From a virus: a stretch of 35,259 nucleotides of DNA. The notes beneath the pieces were generated by a model that saw only the letters and a list, made by a program, of their open reading frames with translations, ran no database searches and was not told where the DNA came from. The stretch is taken from the IMG/VR virus record IMGVR_UViG_3300045988_102484. The stretch is one strand, 5' to 3'. The position numbers and the translations under genes were made by a program. Positions 15,734-23,199 of the stretch are shown here, piece by piece. How positions within the stretch are numbered: position 1 is the stretch's first letter; each line of letters starts with the position of its first letter.

Positions 15734-16117
15734 TTGAAGCTTGAAATAATGAAAGCCCCCAAAAAGGAAGCTTTGTTTACAGCGATGAACCAGCCCGGTA
15801 TTTTCGCCGAGGCTGACGTTCGGGGAAACCTTAATATCGCGGGAGTCCGGTACCGCGTGTCAACGGGTGGAATCAATCCAACGATACCGGTTGACGGATC
15901 GGTTCCGATCGTCTTTGAGGAAGATGGCGGAGAGGTGTATCCGGTCAGGCTTGCCAAGATCAGATCTGGACGAATTGTCCCAGATGTGACGGACGCCGAT
16001 GTCGTTGAGATCCTCGCGCGGGTCATGCGAATCGAGGAAAGCATCGAGGAACTTCGCCAAAAGATTGAAAGCACGGACGCCAAAGTTGACAACGACCTTC
16101 TTGGCAGTATTTTTTGA
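15734..16117 (+). CDS. Hypothetical protein (possible fibre chaperone/assembly factor, by position)
   Basis: 127 aa, TTG start 9 nt after AAGGAGA. Alternative start ATG 15749. Confidence 0.5.
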   Translation: MKLEIMKAPKKEALFTAMNQPGIFAEADVRGNLNIAGVRYRVSTGGINPTIPVDGSVPIVFEEDGGEVYPVRLAKIRSGRIVPDVTDADVVEILARVMRIEESIEELRQKIESTDAKVDNDLLGSIF

Positions 16118-16133
16118 AAGGGGTATAAAAACC

Positions 16134-16934
16134 ATGAAAAAAAGCAAACTGTTCGCATTCCTTACAGCAATCCTTCTGTTGTTCTCCGCCTGCATCGTCT
16201 CGGCGCAGGCGGCAGAGTCGGAATCCGGCGCGGAAACTCCTGCGGAATCAATCTCGGAAACGGCATCCGGCGCCGAAACCGGCACGGATACCGAAACCGA
16301 TACGTCGGCAAAGACGCTGACGGCGGAAGAGATTGAAAGCATCCTCGCGGATGCCTCACCGGAGCAGGTGAAGTACATCAAAGCCAAAATCGAGTCGGTT
16401 CTGTCAGGGCTGGAGGGATACAACGTGACCGGATGGGATAAGGTAGCGGCATGGGTGACGCGCAATATCTACGCGGTATCATGGGCTATCTTCGGTATTG
16501 GCGTTGTCTTCGCCGCGTTTGTATACATTCGCAAGAATCGCGGTCTGATGCGTCAGCTTGCCACGCTAAACAACAACAGCGTGGAAATTGCAAAAGCAAG
16601 CCACGAGGACAGCGGCAGAGCGTTGGATGCGGTCAAACAATACGCGGCAGAAACGGCGGAAATGCGTGAAGCGGTGGCGGAAATGACCGAAGAAGTCGCC
16701 GAAATGCTTGCGGCGCATGAATCAACAAGCGCGGAGAGGGATGCGGCGGTGGCAGAGATTGACGCGCAGAGAAAGGCAGAAACGGACGCCATCCTCTTGC
16801 TTGCCGACACACTGGAGGCAATGATGCAGTGCTCCCGCATCAACGATGCCAGAAAGGACGAGATCGCCGCCAAATACGCCGCCGCGAAGCGGCTGATTGG
16901 AGGTGCCACGGATGAAAAAACCGGTAACGGTTAA
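16134..16934 (+). CDS. Exported/membrane protein: signal peptide, acidic low-complexity region, one TM helix, coiled coil
   Basis: Starts MKKSKLFAFLTAILLLFSACIVSAQA (ATG 16134 within track ORF 15999..16934). TM segment AVSWAIFGIGVVFAAFVYI, followed by an AEM-rich helical tail. Confidence 0.6.
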   Translation: MKKSKLFAFLTAILLLFSACIVSAQAAESESGAETPAESISETASGAETGTDTETDTSAKTLTAEEIESILADASPEQVKYIKAKIESVLSGLEGYNVTGWDKVAAWVTRNIYAVSWAIFGIGVVFAAFVYIRKNRGLMRQLATLNNNSVEIAKASHEDSGRALDAVKQYAAETAEMREAVAEMTEEVAEMLAAHESTSAERDAAVAEIDAQRKAETDAILLLADTLEAMMQCSRINDARKDEIAAKYAAAKRLIGGATDEKTGNG

Positions 16935-17349
16935 AAGGATGTGCTACGTCCTTTCATACGTCGTCGGGATCGGTGTCCCGGTGTGGGCGGTTATGGAAAA
17001 GTTCCCGATTTGGGCGAAGGAGTACAGCCCGGCTAAATCGGCGGGGATCGGTCTGCTTCTTATCGCTTGCATAGTGGTTGCAGTCGGCAGAAAGGTCATA
17101 GTGCCGGCGATCGCAAAGTGGCTCGGGTGGCTTGTAGGCTGGGTCGCGCTTGCGCTTGGAGCCGGACTGCTTGCCGGAATCTCGGTATGGCTTTACAATT
17201 CATTGCAAATTCTGCATGACCTCGGAACCGTTTGCATCGCCTGTTGCGTCGGCTTTTCCATTGCCGCCGCAATAGCGGCGGTGGGGAAAATAATAGGGGA
17301 ATCGGAAGCCCCGAGAAAGGAAGATCACAATGGAGTTGGAACGGATTGA
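16912..17349 (+). CDS. Polytopic membrane protein (about 4 TM), holin-like candidate
   Basis: GGAGGTG lies 6 nt before ATG 16912 (track ORF 16897). 145 aa, almost entirely hydrophobic helices. Confidence 0.55.
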   Translation: MKKPVTVKRMCYVLSYVVGIGVPVWAVMEKFPIWAKEYSPAKSAGIGLLLIACIVVAVGRKVIVPAIAKWLGWLVGWVALALGAGLLAGISVWLYNSLQILHDLGTVCIACCVGFSIAAAIAAVGKIIGESEAPRKEDHNGVGTD

Positions 17350-18322
17350 AGAGGAAAGCGGATTTGAAAAAAAGGCAATCGCCTATAATGCCAAAAGTAA
17401 AGCCGCAGCTCATATTTTTGGAAACAACTTGTCACTGATCATCTGCTTTCTTCTTCCGGCGCTCTTTGTCTTCACGATCTGGACAAGACCGACGATCAAT
17501 GCCGGCTTTGCAGTCATGGGAGACTTTGCCATGACTATCGTGATTTTCCTCGCCGGTCAGCGCGCGGCGCTCAACGTGGGGATAGAAGGCGGGAAGCTGG
17601 ACGACGAGTATCTTTCAGCTCGCGCCAAATATCGAGAGGAGAGGGACAAGGTGATAGCCTGTGGAATAAGTCGACTCCCGGATTTTTGCGAAAAAGAAAT
17701 ATCCGAAGAGCTGGACAATGCCATCCGCGTCCGTTGCCGACGGCTTAAAATCAGCCGTGCCGAAATGGAGGAAATGCTTGCCATGAAGCCGGGCGAGCTT
17801 GCCGCAAAAAGGGGGAAGGCGTTCGCCGCCAAATTTGAACCGCTCCGCCGCATAGAGCCGATTGAGCTCACGGACGACATGCTCCTTTCGGAAGGGCGAG
17901 AGTCCTCCAAGCGCGGGGGGCTTGGAAAAGGAGCGGAAGAACATCTGGAAGAGCGCTGGCGTGGAAAGCGCGGAGCAGCGCATATCGCAATCAGCATATT
18001 GACTGTGGTCTTTTCTGTCGCCGTTGGATTCGCAATGGCTGACGGCGTGTCGCTCGCGCTTATTGTTTACACGATTTACAAGATGCTCATGCTTCTCGCG
18101 CGAATGGCGAACAGCTACCGAGCGGGAGCGAAGGCGTATAATACCTACGAAGCCCAATTTCTAACAAACAAGACGAAATACTTGGTCAAATATCAAGAGT
18201 TTGTAAAGGAGGCGGAAAATCACGAAGGTAAAGAGGTGCACACGGAACCAGCTGGACGAATTCTGTGCGAATGCAGGGTTGACCGATCGGCAGAAATACA
18301 TTGTCAAAAGGAAGCTGTTTGA
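17330..18322 (+). CDS. Membrane protein with N- and C-terminal TM pairs and a charged central domain
   Basis: 330 aa. Hydrophobic segments LSLIICFLLPALFVFTIW, FAMTIVIFLAG, IAISILTVVFSVAVGFAM and LALIVYTIYKMLMLLA. The last ~15 codons overlap the next gene and may be non-native. Confidence 0.55.
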   Translation: MELERIEEESGFEKKAIAYNAKSKAAAHIFGNNLSLIICFLLPALFVFTIWTRPTINAGFAVMGDFAMTIVIFLAGQRAALNVGIEGGKLDDEYLSARAKYREERDKVIACGISRLPDFCEKEISEELDNAIRVRCRRLKISRAEMEEMLAMKPGELAAKRGKAFAAKFEPLRRIEPIELTDDMLLSEGRESSKRGGLGKGAEEHLEERWRGKRGAAHIAISILTVVFSVAVGFAMADGVSLALIVYTIYKMLMLLARMANSYRAGAKAYNTYEAQFLTNKTKYLVKYQEFVKEAENHEGKEVHTEPAGRILCECRVDRSAEIHCQKEAV

Positions 18323-18473
18323 CGGAGACAACCCGCTTGTGGTGAAAATATGCATGGAACTATGCATAAGTAAATCAACATATCATCGCGATGTCAACGA
18401 GATCCGGAAATTGCTACATCAATACCTAAACGAAAAAGAAACTTTGGCGGAACTTTATCGAAAATTAAAATGA
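18279..18473 (+). CDS. Small HTH protein, sigma-70 region-4-like
   Basis: 64 aa: (L)TDRQKYIVKRKLFDGDNPLVVKICMELCISKSTYHRDVNEIRKLL resembles LTxRQxxV...IAxxLGISxxTV. Only a TTG start is available and the RBS is weak. Confidence 0.45.
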   Translation: MTDRQKYIVKRKLFDGDNPLVVKICMELCISKSTYHRDVNEIRKLLHQYLNEKETLAELYRKLK

Positions 18474-18488
18474 ACTTATATGGACTAA

Positions 18489-18513
18489 AGGCGGGACGCT
18501 GCCCCGCCTTTTT
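18489..18513 (+). terminator. Rho-independent terminator
   Basis: GGCGGG / CCCGCC stem (18490-18495 / 18503-18508), 7-nt loop, T5 tract. Confidence 0.75.
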
Positions 18514-18549
18514 GGCGTTATAATAAAAATACATTAGGAGGTGATCGGA

Positions 18550-18909
18550 ATGGCATATGGATATCAGCCCGGCAATTATGGCTTTATGCCCGGACAAATG
18601 GGGCAGTCCCAATCTTTTGGAGCTTATGGCATACCGCAGGCGCAGCAACCGACTTCCAACAAGTTGTTTGTCGTTTCCGCGGAAGATGCCTTGTCAAGAT
18701 TTGCGGCGCCAAATAGCATCATGATTTATCTGCTTCAGGACGAATCAACCCTATTTGAAGTATACACAGACGGTCAGGGGAAAAAGTCAATCAGAGCGCG
18801 GACGCTTACGGATGCGGCGCAGGAAGCTCCGGTTGAATATGCGACCAAAGCGGAACTGGAAGAGCTCAAAAAGGCAATAGATTCCATTAAGGGAGGAACA
18901 GCAACATGA
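18550..18909 (+). CDS. Hypothetical protein (Gly/Gln/Pro-rich N-terminus plus compact beta domain)
   Basis: AGGAGG lies 8 nt upstream of ATG 18550 (track start GTG 18541). 119 aa. Confidence 0.65.
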   Translation: MAYGYQPGNYGFMPGQMGQSQSFGAYGIPQAQQPTSNKLFVVSAEDALSRFAAPNSIMIYLLQDESTLFEVYTDGQGKKSIRARTLTDAAQEAPVEYATKAELEELKKAIDSIKGGTAT

Positions 18910-19163
18910 TCAATCCGGCGCAACTTATGCAGATGGTATCAGGGATGCTGCGAGGCGGAAATCCGCAGATGATTGCCCAGCAGATTCTTCGCCAAAATCC
19001 GCAGTTTGCTCAAGCGCTCCAGGGGCAGAACCCTCAAGCCATGGCGCAGAGCATGTTGAGGCAAGCCGGGCTTTCCCCACAGCAGATCCAGCAGATTGCG
19101 CAGGCAATCCAAGGCGGAGGATCTTCCATGCACAGCCCCGGAGCGTATGGGGCAAGGCAGTAA
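18906..19163 (+). CDS. Gln-rich helical repeat protein
   Basis: 85 aa, ATGA-coupled to the upstream gene, GGAGGA RBS. Repeated NPQ..AQ motifs. Confidence 0.6.
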   Translation: MINPAQLMQMVSGMLRGGNPQMIAQQILRQNPQFAQALQGQNPQAMAQSMLRQAGLSPQQIQQIAQAIQGGGSSMHSPGAYGARQ

Positions 19164-19216
19164 TTTCATCCGGAGCGCGCCCGGTTTGAAATAAAAAACG
19201 AAAGGAGAAAAAAACA

Positions 19217-19843
19217 ATGAGTGACTTTGCAGAAGGCTACGCGGTAGGTCAGTCCAACGGAGCCTATACCGATGGATTCGGCGGAGGCGGCGGCTGGGTT
19301 TGGATCATCGTCCTTTTCGCACTTTTCGGATTTGGCGGCTGGGGCAACAACCGAAATCAGGGCGCGGTGACCGAAGCGGGTTTGTGCAACGCAATGGGCT
19401 TCAATGATTTGGCAAATGCTGTCGGGCGGCTTTCCGACCAGAACCAAAATCAGACCATGACGCTCGGCAACGGGATTTGCAATCTCGGCTACGAGATGCA
19501 GGGAAGCATCGGGCAGCTCGGGAAGGATGTGGCTCTGTCTCAGGCGGAGCTCTCTCGGCAGATCTCCGACTGTTGCTGTGGCACACAGCGAGCGATTGAC
19601 GCCGCAAAATACGATCAGTCGCTTGGATTCGCCGCGGTAAACGCCAATATCGATGCCAAGTTCGCCGCGCTTGAAAAGGCTGGTCTTGAGCGGCAGATCG
19701 CCGATCAGGCGGCGAAGATCAACCAGCTGGAGCTGGCTCAGCAGATGTACGGCGTGGTGCGGTATCCCAATGGCTACACCTACAATGCCGGTGCATCCCC
19801 GTTCTGCGGATACGGTCAGTGCTGCGGCTCCGCAATCCAGTAA
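19217..19843 (+). CDS. Membrane-anchored Cys-rich coiled-coil protein with Gly-rich N-terminus
   Basis: AAAGGAGAAAAAAACA-ATG. N-terminus GFGGGGGWVWIIVLFALFGFGGWG (Gly-rich plus TM). CCC and CC clusters. 208 aa. Confidence 0.65.
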   Translation: MSDFAEGYAVGQSNGAYTDGFGGGGGWVWIIVLFALFGFGGWGNNRNQGAVTEAGLCNAMGFNDLANAVGRLSDQNQNQTMTLGNGICNLGYEMQGSIGQLGKDVALSQAELSRQISDCCCGTQRAIDAAKYDQSLGFAAVNANIDAKFAALEKAGLERQIADQAAKINQLELAQQMYGVVRYPNGYTYNAGASPFCGYGQCCGSAIQ

Positions 19844-19923
19844 ATCAAATTTTGGGGACTAATTATCCCCCATAAAATGGGGGGCGGGAATACTCGCCCC
19901 TGATTTGAATAAGGAGGAAAGCC

Positions 19924-20367
19924 ATGCTATTGATTGGAATCAAAAACACGAACGCGCAGACCCTTATATCCGGCGAGAACATCAACCTCGGGGCTGTATA
20001 CCGCCGGTACTGCCGGCGCAACTCATGCGGAACTCCGTCGTTCTCCGCATCCGGCACCGATCTGACAATCAACGCCGCCGGGATCTACCACGTCACGGCG
20101 ACGATGGTATGCACCGCAACGGTTGCCGGAATTGTATCGGCAGAGCTTTTCGCCAACGGGGTGGCGATCCCGGGCGCGATATCATCCGAGACGATAACGA
20201 CAGCCGGTACAGAACAGCGGACGCTTGTGATCGACCAGTACGTATTGGTTGACAGGGCTTGCACGCTCGGAACAAACGCAATCCGACCGGTGTCCTTGTC
20301 GATCGTAAACGCGGGAGTCGGCGCAACGTACTCTGCGATTACGCTCAACGCAGAAAAAGTGGCATAA
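19924..20367 (+). CDS. BclA C-terminal-domain-like (C1q/TNF-like jelly roll) protein without collagen repeats
   Basis: AAGGAGGAAAGCC-ATG, 147 aa. The segments ..AAGIYHVTATMVCTATVAGIVSAELFANGVAIPGAISS.. and ..SAITLNAEKVA parallel my memory of the Bacillus anthracis BclA CTD (..TGFYKITVIANTATASVLGGLTIQVNGVPVPGTGSS.., ..ASIIIEKVA). Confidence 0.55.
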   Translation: MLLIGIKNTNAQTLISGENINLGAVYRRYCRRNSCGTPSFSASGTDLTINAAGIYHVTATMVCTATVAGIVSAELFANGVAIPGAISSETITTAGTEQRTLVIDQYVLVDRACTLGTNAIRPVSLSIVNAGVGATYSAITLNAEKVA

Positions 20368-20381
20368 AGGGGGCGAGCGAG

Positions 20382-20867
20382 GTGAACGAAGTCGCAAGAA
20401 GGATCCTCATGGAAAGGCATCGCCGCCGAAAAGAACACGAAGCCACAGAGCCGGAAGAGCGGCGCGTCACAGTGCACGCCGCGATTTCCGACGATAACGA
20501 GCCGATTCGTCAAAGCGAAGATCTGGAAAATGAAGATCTGACGGAAGACGAGATGCGAGAATGGGCGCGCAATTTGCGAAACGCTGACGGTTCGCACGGC
20601 GCGCGCTTTTCGCGGCGCGAGATTGAGCGTGCCGCCGATGATCTCGGCATCAAAAATACCGGATACTCCCTCGATGACTTGTGGATGGCGGCAAATATGT
20701 CGTATTCTGACTACTGCGGCGCCTTGCTTGAGGTTTGTCCCGGAAATCGAAGCGAGGAGACCGCGCTCTACACTAAAATCGGAGCCGCTTTCCTGGACGA
20801 CTCCGATGCCTCGGTGCGCGGCTCGGAAAAATTGATGCTATACTATCGGTGTATAGTCGATGAATAA
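20382..20867 (+). CDS. Hypothetical protein (acidic N-terminus; ..NADGSHGARFSRREIE.., ..WMAANMSYSDYCGAL..)
   Basis: In-frame GTG 20382 follows AGGGGG. Alternative start ATG 20409. Track ORF 20259 overlaps the upstream gene. Last gene before the terminator. Confidence 0.55.
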   Translation: MNEVARRILMERHRRRKEHEATEPEERRVTVHAAISDDNEPIRQSEDLENEDLTEDEMREWARNLRNADGSHGARFSRREIERAADDLGIKNTGYSLDDLWMAANMSYSDYCGALLEVCPGNRSEETALYTKIGAAFLDDSDASVRGSEKLMLYYRCIVDE

Positions 20868-20870
20868 GAA

Positions 20871-20891
20871 AGCGGAGGCAACGCCTCCGCT
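20871..20891. terminator. Hairpin between convergent genes (bidirectional terminator)
   Basis: AGCGGAGGC-AAC-GCCTCCGCT, a 9-bp perfect stem. T-rich on the minus-strand exit side and moderately T-rich on the plus side. Confidence 0.7.
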
Positions 20892-20924: not shown

Positions 20925-21170
20925 TTATTGGTTTTCCCATTTTTTGAATTCTATGATTATTTTTGTCACGTTTTCAAAGTCGATGTATCCGTTTTCGTCC
21001 GGTTCACCTTTTACTACTGCGTAGTATTTGATTTTTCTCTTTTCCTCTTTAGTTAGGTATTTTTCCCATTCCCATTTTGCTTCTTGGATTGCTTCTTCTT
21101 TTGTTTTGAACATTGTTTGGAATCGGTCTACATTTTCTTGGCGAATAATTGCGTAAGCTTCATTTTTCAT
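20925..21170 (-). CDS. Small Lys/Glu-rich hypothetical protein in a low-GC island (third gene of the operon)
   Basis: AGGAGG RBS then ATG at 21170 (internal to track ORF 20925..21233). 81 aa. My hand count gives about 33% G+C against GC-rich flanks. Confidence 0.6.
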   Translation of the reverse strand: MKNEAYAIIRQENVDRFQTMFKTKEEAIQEAKWEWEKYLTKEEKRKIKYYAVVKGEPDENGYIDFENVTKIIIEFKKWENQ

Positions 21171-21405
21171 CTTTTCTTTCCTCCTTTGAACGATCCGATG
21201 TTTTCTTTGTCCGCCTATCCCTGAGCGGCTCAACGCCGGGGACGGCGGCAGCGATCAGCTCGCCGACAAATAAATTTACTGTTTTTCCGGCTTCTTTCGC
21301 CGCGTCTTTTACTTTTTGCGCGTCAGATTTCCGCAAGCTGATGTTGAGCGGCGAGTAGTTTTCGCGCTTATAATCACGAGTGTAATCTTTCAAGTTGTAG
21401 CCCAT
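21160..21405 (-). CDS. Ribbon-helix-helix (CopG/Arc-like) DNA-binding protein, antitoxin-like
   Basis: 81 aa. NISLRKSDAQKVKDAAKEAGKTVNLFVGELI fits the RHH strand-helix-helix pattern, followed by a basic disordered tail. Overlaps the downstream gene by 11 nt. Confidence 0.55.
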   Translation of the reverse strand: MGYNLKDYTRDYKRENYSPLNISLRKSDAQKVKDAAKEAGKTVNLFVGELIAAAVPGVEPLRDRRTKKTSDRSKEERKDEK

Positions 21406-21477
21406 ATTATTCTTTTCTTGCCTTTCTGATGATGCTCATCCCTTTCTGCGGGGATTAGCCGCCCCGCTCGGCTATCA

Positions 21478-21780
21478 TCAAAAGTTGTGGATCTCGCCGT
21501 CTCGCCCGATGTATCTTTCGTGGCATAGCTTTGCCATTTCAAGACCGCTAAAAACGATTTGCATCGGGTGCAGTCCAGCTTCTTTTTTGCCGTTCGTGAA
21601 ATCCGCGTACTTTCTGCGCGTGCCGAAGTTATCATTTTTGACGATGATGTCGCCGCGCTCGTTTCCGAAGTTAACAACCACCGCGCGAACCTCCCGGTTG
21701 ACATTGAAGTGATTTTCGTCGATATCGAACACCTCCTTGTATATCTTGGTCGTCAATTCCGCTTTCGTTGCCTTTCCCAT
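21478..21780 (-). CDS. Hypothetical protein (first gene of the attP-proximal operon)
   Basis: GGAGGA lies 7 nt before ATG 21780 (track ORF starts at 21798). 100 aa, no motif recognised. Confidence 0.6.
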   Translation of the reverse strand: MGKATKAELTTKIYKEVFDIDENHFNVNREVRAVVVNFGNERGDIIVKNDNFGTRRKYADFTNGKKEAGLHPMQIVFSGLEMAKLCHERYIGRDGEIHNF

Positions 21781-21840
21781 TTTCCGTTCCTCCATCATTT
21801 ATTTGTTTTCGTTTTATGGGCTCCTTGCCCCTGTGGCTGT

Positions 21841-22115: not shown

Positions 22116-22135
22116 CGTTTCAAATTTCGTTTCAA
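22116..22135. repeat. Two further CGTTTCAA copies (12-bp spacing) overlapping the int stop codon
   Basis: CGTTTCAA at 22116..22123 and 22128..22135. Confidence 0.6.
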
Positions 22136-23199
22136 TTTTTGCTAAAAACTCCAGAAAAATAGGACTGCAGCTGATCCTGGACGCTGCTCTTTTTGGACGC
22201 CATGATGTGCCCGTAAACTTGGTCAATCATGTTCTCTGTCTCGTGCCCGACATAGTCCGCGATGTACTTCTTCGGCACGTTGAGCGACAGCATGACGGAT
22301 ATCAGATAATGTCGCAAGTCGTGGAAGCGGTACTGCCGGACGCCTGCACGTTTAATGACCCACCGCCAGCGCGACGTGATGTCCGCCGGGTTGATCGTGA
22401 TGCGGTCGCCCGGCTCCGCTCCGTTCGGCTTGGCGGCATTCAGCGCGTCCACGACCGCCGGGAACAGCTTGATGGTTCGCGTGCCGGCTCTCGTCTTGGT
22501 TGTCTTTGTGTGGTATTCATTGTCGTCTCCGAGTACCAGTGCCTGATGGATGCTGATGATGCCATCGTATAGATCTACATCGCGCCACGTGAGCGCGGCG
22601 ATCTCCGAACGACGCATACCACAGCAGGCGCCAAGTAAGACCGGGATTTCCATATCGGTGCCGGCGGCGGCTTGCATAATGCGCCGAATCTCCTGCTCTG
22701 TCGGTATCCTGACCGTGCTCCGCTCCTTCTGCGGCATTCGAATGTTGAAAGTCACGTCCGGCATCTCGTCAGCAAGAGACGCCGAAAAAAGCCCGTAGGC
22801 GTTGCGAACCGTTTTGGGCGCAACTCTGCGTGCCTCATCGTTTACGACGCTCTGGACGAGATTTTGCGACAGCCCCGACAGTTTAGCATCCAGAAGCTCC
22901 TGCAAATTGTTCCGGACTATGCCACGGTATGAGCGAATCGTAGCCGGGGACAGGACTGCGGCGCGGCGGTCTATATAGTCGTTCATCATGTCGCGGACGG
23001 TTCGTCCCTGCCCTGTCCGTGCCGCGCGCTTGTCTGCCTTGCGCGCGGCAAGCTCCAGCTGAACCTCGGCATAGGTGGCGCGCGTGATTGACTCGACGAT
23101 AGACTTACCGTCCGGATCCTTTCCGGCGTATATGCGCGCCGTATAGGAGCCGGACGGGAGTTGTTTGATTCTGGGTAGCCTTGTGTTGCGTCGCGTCAT
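22132..23199 (-). CDS. int: Tyrosine recombinase / phage integrase
   Basis: 355 aa. Has ..AALTWRDVDL.. (Arg), HDLRHYLIS (HxxR) and GHETENMIDQVYGH (His...Tyr), plus an N-terminal SAM-like arm/core-binding region. Adjacent to attP. Confidence 0.92.
   Translation of the reverse strand: MTRRNTRLPRIKQLPSGSYTARIYAGKDPDGKSIVESITRATYAEVQLELAARKADKRAARTGQGRTVRDMMNDYIDRRAAVLSPATIRSYRGIVRNNLQELLDAKLSGLSQNLVQSVVNDEARRVAPKTVRNAYGLFSASLADEMPDVTFNIRMPQKERSTVRIPTEQEIRRIMQAAAGTDMEIPVLLGACCGMRRSEIAALTWRDVDLYDGIISIHQALVLGDDNEYHTKTTKTRAGTRTIKLFPAVVDALNAAKPNGAEPGDRITINPADITSRWRWVIKRAGVRQYRFHDLRHYLISVMLSLNVPKKYIADYVGHETENMIDQVYGHIMASKKSSVQDQLQSYFSGVFSKN

Follow-up and report, generated by a model that had tools for sequence, protein, structure and literature searches.

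The virus record IMGVR_UViG_3300045988_102484 of IMG/VR, which was analysed over its full length of 35,259 nucleotides (nt; hereafter the window), carries a block of five co-directional genes, g1 to g5, that is tentatively interpreted as an autonomous host-directed accessory module of Clostridia phages, neither virion hardware nor a lysis system. The probability of this reading is estimated at roughly 45 %. The five genes are preceded by Shine-Dalgarno ribosome binding sites (RBSs) and lie between two intrinsic terminators, just 3' of a small helix-turn-helix (HTH) gene. They are real genes, because dozens of loci contain homologues of each of them in the same arrangement. The genes and the boundaries of the module are as follows:

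g1, 18550-18909, plus strand, 119 amino acids (aa), RBS AGGAGG
g2, 18906-19163, plus strand, 85 aa, RBS GGGAGG, start overlapping the stop of g1
g3, 19217-19843, plus strand, 208 aa, RBS AAGGAG
g4, 19924-20367, plus strand, 147 aa, RBS AAGGAGG
g5, 20382-20867, plus strand, 161 aa, GTG start, RBS AAGGGGG, pI 4.8
Intrinsic terminator 5' of g1, 18487-18511, plus strand, 9-bp stem followed by a U-run, -16.1 kcal/mol
Bidirectional terminator, 20871-20891, both strands, closing the module and the convergent minus-strand genes

The original prediction, which was made from the sequence of the window, had placed five genes, four of them with strong RBSs, between hairpin terminators. This layout was confirmed, as both hairpins fold as intrinsic terminators, the first of them at 18487-18511, and Shine-Dalgarno sites are present at all five genes. 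The first terminator insulates the module from the late genes that precede it. In 23 of 52 loci, a terminator-like site lies no more than 160 nt 5' of g1, compared with 26 of 520 random windows, which corresponds to an approximately 9-fold enrichment. The closing element at 20871-20891 folds at -20.1 kcal/mol on the plus strand (z-score -4.2) and at -24.9 kcal/mol on the minus strand (z-score -6.1). A fixed extended -10 promoter upstream of g1 was considered and rejected, since it occurs in a subset of the loci only.

The conservation of the block was assessed by tblastn, clustering and family hidden Markov models (HMMs) over loci from genome and viral collections. Order and strand are kept in the 56 loci that contain g4, with g3 present in 55, g1 in 54, g2 in 53 and g5 in 52 of them, and some of the missing genes belong to loci that end at a contig edge (e.g. 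L002). The survey of co-occurrence thus shows that the five families, which had been described from this single genome, are kept together as an ordered block. Across the loci, the identity of the module proteins ranges from 30 to 65 % and the G+C content from 27 to 56 %, and an identical g4 is found on one IMG/VR contig. A sixth gene of about 122 aa with a conserved Cys..His..Asp pattern ends the module in 37 of the 56 loci and is absent from the window. In the products of this gene (L006:9308-9676 and 36 other loci), 'DCVTRAIS' is conserved, and one His, one Asp and two Cys are invariant. This pattern resembles papain-like proteins or a zinc ribbon, and the Phage_YunG-like Pfam matches are weak. 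Several module loci come from metagenome-assembled genomes labelled Prevotella, Mucispirillaceae and Anaeroplasmataceae (L018 = JAMPDF010000001.1, L010 and L007), with a G+C content of 27-34 %. Since this range looks too low for Prevotella, at least that label may reflect mis-binning.

The core g1-g2-g3 also occurs in cultured Clostridium perfringens phages (vB_CpeS-17DYC, XP41-N3 and others) and in the uncultured faecal record MT835524.1 (L029). No g4 was found by tblastn in GenBank phages, and an HMM search detected a divergent copy in MT835537.1. In phages without g4, a small Cys-rich beta-type protein of 119-136 aa is encoded 3' of g3 (L029:9480-9890; L026:6602-6961; L027:6634-7011), for which no Pfam or PDB sequence match was obtained. 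A 102-aa protein encoded 3' of it in L029 shows a weak rubrerythrin-like match (E 0.003). The phage vB_CpeS-17DYC has no annotated integrase or repressor, and a screen for virulent phages yielded its relatives (PMC3118219, PMC10353432). As g1-g2-g3 is present in these apparently virulent C. perfringens phages, the core is not purely a lysogenic-conversion function. Of the conversion cassette that had been proposed originally, the insulated accessory unit is therefore retained, and its restriction to lysogenic conversion is not.

The fold of g4 links the module to known proteins. The g4 protein is a stand-alone jelly roll of the type found in the C-terminal domain (CTD) of BclA, in C1q and in TNF, and within its 147 aa the fold begins at residue 3. 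The AlphaFold2 model, which was built from a 30-sequence alignment, is all-beta with a predicted local distance difference test (pLDDT) score of 92.3. When this model was searched against the PDB with Foldseek, ranks 1-5 were BclA CTDs (E 3.8e-10 to 3e-9, template modelling (TM) score 0.69-0.76). The best entries were 3tyj, 3twi and 1wck, followed later by 9h38, 9h3d and 7r5i, and the lower ranks comprised EDA/TNF ligands, the tip domain of F-BclA, ExsF/ExsFA and C1q heads. The Pfam model BclA_C (PF18573) matches residues 39-99 only, with an E-value of 1.3e-5 and 25.5 bits compared with a cut-off of 38 bits, and one close homologue has a precomputed match to PF18573. The earlier view that g4 tracks the BclA CTD and lacks collagen repeats agrees with these results, since no reading frame of the window contains five or more collagen GXY repeats in a row. 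Judged by its model, g4 is a predicted member of the BclA/C1q/TNF fold superfamily, not a BclA orthologue, and it probably forms a trimer. The assignment adds a new member to a known superfamily, and similar proteins have already been labelled automatically in a few uncultured phages.

The same fold also brings in the possibility that the genes form a virion-associated or assembly set, with g4 as a separate fibre or decoration knob and with fibre, chaperone or ejection functions for g1, g3 and g5. In a Foldseek search against BFVD, the best matches of g4 were proteins of 130-153 aa from uncultured gut phages, two of which are named 'BclA protein', and the matches also include tail-fibre, fibritin and collagen-repeat proteins, in line with the TNF/C1q-type knobs that are typical of phage fibres. 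Coiled-coil segments in g1 and g3, and the position of the module 3' of tail-fibre genes on the same strand in gut phages, would also suit such a set. However, membrane proteins, a regulator and a terminator separate the module from the tail genes, the module follows the holin and amidase genes in MT835537.1, the triad g1-g2-g3 follows an antirepressor gene in C. perfringens phages, and g3 has a membrane segment. Moreover, g4 is strongly conserved and not hypervariable. Its mean column identity is 59 %, its length stays near 147 aa, and among the 120 listed of its 241 homologues the lengths range from 146 to 178 aa. The receptor-binding tips of tail fibres are variable, and a role of g4 as such a tip is unlikely given its conserved sequence and uniform length. 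The module is probably not structural, and a virion-associated set is considered improbable.

The g3 protein would tie the module to a membrane. It starts with an acidic N-terminus, which is followed by a Gly-rich hydrophobic segment at residues 20-43, helical repeats, a CCC motif that is invariant in the alignment, and a Cys-bearing tail. With one predicted hydrophobic segment, it is a single-pass membrane protein. The Gly-rich membrane protein of the original prediction is thus recognizable by this segment, which lies at residues 20-43 and not at the protein start. A YjcZ-like start, which had also been suggested, was not supported by any Pfam (E ≤ 1) or NCBIfam (E ≤ 0.1) match, and the likeness is compositional only. 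YjcZ-type sporulation proteins have a few tens of residues, compared with 208 aa for g3. Lys and Arg are missing before the membrane span, and the first basic residue follows just after it in a conserved NR(G) motif. The N-terminus of g3 is therefore predicted to be outside and its long tail cytoplasmic. Because the g3 N-terminus has no basic residue and the first Arg comes after the span, and because g1, g2, g4 and g5 are without any hydrophobic signal-like segment, the bulk of g3 and its likely partners would be cytoplasmic. From the absence of export signals, we infer an intracellular, membrane-anchored assembly that is aimed at the host.

The family of g3 is large. A profile search retrieved at least 7,989 clusters (90 % identity) at E ≤ 0.001, and among the 120 clusters listed no Pfam domain was found and any name supplied by the source is only 'hypothetical protein'. 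The g3 protein is also matched by phrog_16490 (E 3.6e-14), a PHROG without a functional label. By this measure, the g3 family appears to be one of the larger families without annotation in gut Clostridia phages. In g1, the alignment reveals a low-complexity head rich in Tyr, Gly, Gln and Pro, a conserved domain (about 55 aa) and a helix at the C-terminus; it has no Pfam family and matches phrog_21718 weakly. The g2 protein is helical with NPQ-type repeats, contains 24 % Gln and 9 % Met and has a pI of 12. Composition and alignments thus agree with the earlier description of a Gly/Gln/Pro-rich head in g1 and NPQ/Gln-rich helical repeats in g2. PDB profile matches of g2 were discarded, because those to TALE repeats are a repeat artefact and 'Gogy' was designed de novo. 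Profile searches against PDB sequences with g1, g2, g3, g5, the extra gene c4 and the alternative fourth gene g4' yielded nothing meaningful.

The g5 protein is matched by the Pfam family DUF7841 at residues 47-145, with 44 bits compared with a cut-off of 25.2 bits (E 2.9e-11). It combines an Arg-rich N-terminus with a C-terminal DUF7841 domain and is acidic overall, as expected from the earlier description of an acidic protein of about 160 aa. A long N-terminal region rich in Arg, Gly, Tyr and Asp, which is present in the g5 proteins of relatives, is reduced to the Arg-rich start in the window. At E ≤ 0.001, 521 representatives of DUF7841 were collected. Among the best 150 of these (93-338 aa), the domain is located at or near the C-terminus and no fusions with known domains are apparent. 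No paper mentioning DUF7841 was found in the literature.

The spacer between g3 and g4 contains two further elements:

Small hairpin, 19854-19870, plus strand, core GGAYTARYTATCC at 19856-19868, short stem and 7-nt loop CUAAUUA in the window
Internal terminator-like hairpin, 19876-19905, plus strand, weak U-tract in the window

Due to the internal terminator-like hairpin 3' of g3, the unit is divided into g1-g3 plus g4-g5, and it consists of a terminator, g1-g2-g3, the small hairpin with its terminator, g4-g5 and the closing terminator. For the single five-gene operon that had been predicted, this means that the bracketing terminators hold, and that the undivided unit does not, because of this third hairpin at 19876-19905. 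The segment 19845-19905, which covers both stems, folds at -26.7 kcal/mol (z-score -3.1). Across the loci, the medians for the g3-g4 spacers are 98 nt (length) and -3.6 (z-score), and 40 of 49 spacers have z-scores below -2. The core GGAYTARYTATCC has a single exact match in the window and exact matches in 30 of 62 loci, which are on the plus strand only and lie in the g3-g4 spacer in every locus mapped. Its two outer pairs vary (AU/CG/GC/UA and GC/CG/UA), yet they are paired in 100 % of cases. The covariation score is 0.37, compared with 0.09 for shuffled alignments, and was reached by 0 of 500 shuffles. Rfam covariance models gave no match in 19845-19905 at E ≤ 1. A small hairpin together with a terminator was also found in L026, L027, L001 and L012, and L029 and L032 have a terminator-like stem. 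Among the relatives without g4, such a hairpin and terminator lie 3' of g3 in C. perfringens phages, and the terminator-like stem does so in L029. The hairpin of the window may be a riboregulator or a protein-binding site, and roles in processing or stability, or as a DNA operator, are just as conceivable. The expression of g4-g5 is predicted to depend on regulated read-through of the internal terminator.

Taken together, the host-directed module would act through two mini-operons, g1-g2-g3 and g4-g5, that are used in two steps. In the first step, g3 would insert into the membrane so that the short acidic N-terminus faces outwards and the long helical tail with its Cys residues stays in the cytoplasm, where the Gln/Met-rich g2 and the partly disordered g1 would act with it. 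Regulated read-through of the internal terminator would then allow g4, probably as a trimer, and g5 to join. In the end, the proteins would form an assembly at the cytoplasmic side of a host membrane, the purpose of which would be to change the host and not to build or release virions. Two settings were ranked for this assembly: first, it may cover the mother-cell face of the forespore membrane as a coat-like layer, and second, it may serve phage exclusion or envelope remodelling at the vegetative membrane. A role at the vegetative membrane fits the position and insulation of the module equally well. Both readings fall within the general claim, and the likelihoods expressed here are not meant to sum to one.

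In the spore-surface reading, mother-cell proteins would be placed on the forespore, with g3 as an anchor in the outer forespore membrane and g4 as a surface unit similar to BclA or ExsFA. This reading is physically coherent, since the cytoplasmic face of the engulfing membrane is the surface of the forespore. It draws on the BclA entries at Foldseek ranks 1-5, with F-BclA, ExsF and ExsFA lower among the TNF-family matches, on the BclA_C match below the Pfam cut-off, and on the missing export signals of g1, g2, g4 and g5, as expected for assembly by the mother cell. The coat-protein-like abundance of Cys, Gly and Gln, a weak SpoIIID-like match of the HTH protein (E 0.01, below the cut-off) and the fact that C. 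perfringens, the sole cultured host with the core triad, forms spores point in the same direction. However, the core triad is found in C. perfringens phages without an annotated integrase, a group that was isolated as virulent. In addition, there is no match to YjcZ or a coat-protein family and no collagen stalk or exosporium-targeting region, and the BclA_C fold is also common in phage fibres. No sporulation-type (sigma-E/sigma-K) promoter was noticed upstream of g1 by eye, without a formal scan. A literature search found nothing relevant linking prophages and exosporium proteins. Spore-surface conversion is therefore regarded as a doubtful, if coherent, special case. As for the decoration of the vegetative envelope, which had been considered alongside it, the absent export signals count against it.

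Superinfection exclusion or abortive infection would assign g3 the role of a membrane effector or gatekeeper and the soluble proteins the role of sensors or regulators, with expression in the prophage and early in infection. The module is a terminator-bracketed unit with an adjacent regulator; in MT835537.1 it has the lysis genes on one side and the integrase on the other, in the window it adjoins the integrase, and in C. perfringens phages the triad is located among non-structural genes, all of which would be compatible with such a function. On the other hand, no PADLOC family and no enzymatic or nucleotide-binding domain was found, and only about 25 residues of g3 would face the outside. Defence cargo is usually swapped between phages, in contrast to five to six genes that remain ordered at 30-65 % identity across many phages. 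Exclusion is hence ranked after the spore surface and is likewise unlikely.

The relation of the module to lysis was clarified by its relatives. The complete genome MT835537.1 encodes Phage_holin_4_1 (1e-31), Amidase_3 (4.5e-11) and SPOR domains, and its lysis genes, located by eye at approximately 21.56-22.67 kb, lie directly upstream of an HTH-g1-g3-g4-g5 block and the integrase. In C. perfringens phages, an annotated amidase and holin are encoded approximately 3.5 kb upstream of g1-g2-g3, and the triad follows an antirepressor gene among recombination genes. The module sits downstream of lysis genes and is not a canonical lysis system. The moron position between lysis region and lysogeny module that had been claimed for the window is therefore displayed by MT835537.1; the window itself has no recognisable lysis region. 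With a terminator-insulated unit and separate lysis genes in relatives, the statement that these are not typical virion or lysis genes was upheld. The lysis system that had been offered as an alternative is disfavoured, and was rejected as the leading interpretation, because three relatives have a canonical amidase and holin besides the module or its core.

An accessory lysis or lysis-timing module, in which g3 would be a single-pass holin of the T4 T type or an antiholin partner, is the least probable of the alternatives. No Pfam or PHROG family of holins or endolysins was found in any open reading frame (ORF) of at least 70 aa in the 35-kb window. In eight relatives, 43 Pfam families were found within 6.5 kb of g4, and the 25 most frequent ones include no lysin or holin family. 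The module also occupies the usual slot of a lysis cassette, g3 resembles the T4 T holin in size and predicted topology, and the small Cys..His..Asp protein ends the module in 37 of the 56 relatives. This is opposed by the canonical amidase and holin in the three relatives mentioned above, the lack of an enzyme-like family or fold for g1-g5, the absence of the Cys-His-Asp gene from the window and the terminator that separates the module from the late operon.

Several observations weigh against the host-directed interpretation. The window without a recognisable holin or endolysin leaves a lysis-related role for module or nearby genes, the location of the module after tail genes on the same strand in gut phages would suit a virion role, and TNF/C1q knobs are common in phage fibres, as illustrated by the BFVD matches. 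PADLOC models gave no significant match for g1-g5, with DrmC (E 0.016, for g5) as the only hit. The only candidate promoter element is a TATAAT hexamer at 18519-18524 with no clear -35 element, the role of which is predicted from the sequence. Furthermore, the AlphaFold2 monomer model of g3 has a pLDDT of 43, so that its topology and any oligomer are deduced from the charge distribution only.

Upstream of the module, the HTH gene and a group of membrane-protein genes were annotated:

g0, small HTH regulator, 18279-18473, plus strand, 64 aa from a TTG start
Signal-peptide/transmembrane protein, 15999-16934
Polytopic membrane protein, 16897-17349
330-aa membrane protein, 17330-18322

The g0 protein matches the Pfam Mga HTH family above the cut-off (29.6 compared with 21.1 bits, E 1.1e-6). 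Its matches to PHROG regulator and sigma-factor models (sigma E 0.01-0.035) and to RinA are weak, so that of the sigma-region-4-like HTH described earlier, the HTH was substantiated and the sigma-factor relationship was not. The protein resembles the C-terminal HTH of the membrane-HTH protein c6, which precedes the module in 35 of the 56 loci. In many relatives, c6 is one protein in which a membrane domain is fused to the same HTH as in g0. In the window, the g0 frame stays open back to 18207, so that in the +1 frame it runs over the 3' end of the ORF for the 330-aa membrane protein. The g0 region may represent a gene that has been split, a small gene with a TTG start or a frameshifted fusion. 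An AgrB-like match of the upstream membrane-HTH protein was not used, since it is marginal (21.6-23.5 bits compared with a 23-bit cut-off). The interval 15734-18322 corresponds to the slot of the holin and amidase in a relative and holds membrane-protein genes instead. For the products of 16897-17349 and 17330-18322, no tblastn match was found in 50,697 GenBank phage records. These adjacent membrane-protein genes (15734-18322) may include a candidate novel lysis system.

The window as a whole is an apparently complete, circularly permuted genome of a temperate tailed phage of 35 kb, with the following landmarks:

Terminase and portal genes, 31.7-34.5 kb
Minor capsid gene, 0.4-1.6 kb
Presumed tape-measure gene, 950 aa, 6.1-9.0 kb
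1108-aa protein with an Ig-like (Big_2) domain, presumed fibre, 12.4-15.7 kb
Integrase, 22132-23199, minus strand

The large terminase is closest to those of Mediterraneibacter, Flavonifractor, Butyrivibrio and Faecalibacterium phages. The G+C content across the module interval is 0.47-0.56, compared with approximately 0.55 for the phage. Between the portal and minor capsid genes, an ORF at 12-455 contains a DNA methylase domain (N6_N4_Mtase, E 7e-23), which aligns to the C-terminal part of the Pfam model only. On the minus strand, a perfect sigma-70-type promoter at 21869-21841 (TTGACA, 17 nt, TATAAT, with TG; 12 of 12 matches) lies 5' of small genes at 21478-21798, 21160-21405 and 20925-21233. 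These minus-strand genes (20925-21798) converge on the module terminator and are probably expressed in the prophage. One of them matches phrog_1672 and another phrog_13890, and neither PHROG has an assigned function.

As far as could be found, the five-gene block, the large g3 family and the covarying hairpin have not been described before. In its most specific form, the proposal is that g1-g2-g3 and g4-g5 constitute an undescribed phage system which builds a membrane-anchored, BclA-knobbed, coat-like assembly inside Clostridia, e.g. on the forespore, and alters the spore surface or transmission, with g4-g5 switched on by the riboregulatory hairpin GGAYTARYTATCC, which would govern read-through at the internal terminator. 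In this full combination the proposal is speculative and considered unlikely. A function of the g3 family, once assigned, would annotate thousands of genes in gut Clostridia phages, which are currently a blind spot of virome annotation. If the module alters spores or the envelope, it would offer a phage route to affect the transmission and persistence of gut anaerobes. Together, the hairpin and the internal terminator make up a compact element that is a candidate regulatory RNA of a new kind for phages of Gram-positive bacteria.

Compared with known systems, g4 shares the compact all-beta jelly roll with the BclA CTD, ExsFA and F-BclA, and like ExsFA it is a stand-alone domain without a collagen stalk. 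It differs from BclA in that it is only 17-18 % identical to the BclA structures and remains below the Pfam gathering score, and from full-length BclA by the missing N-terminal exosporium-targeting region and collagen-like repeat stalk. Furthermore, it is phage-encoded and located in a fixed five-gene context. Members of phrog_16490, the closest described group for g3, are also found in cultured C. perfringens phages, and the g3 of the window is a short-tailed subtype ending in ..VVRYPNGYTYNAG...

The g3-g4 spacer is reminiscent of the lambda N/boxB system, in which a small hairpin upstream of a terminator is read by an Arg-rich peptide. As in lambda, a short stem with a conserved loop is located just 5' of an intrinsic terminator inside an operon, and g5 starts with the Arg-rich stretch ARRILMERHRRRK, which is a lead only. 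However, the module hairpin has no sequence relationship to boxB and no boxA, and the comparison concerns geometry alone. The module also resembles morons, with terminators on both sides, an adjacent regulator and a location between the lysis genes and the integrase in MT835537.1 or next to the integrase in the window. In contrast to morons, it is not sporadic and is ordered in 56 loci, its G+C content equals that of the phage, and its core triad also occurs in phages without an annotated integrase. Based on these sequence features, the module does not appear to be a typical moron.

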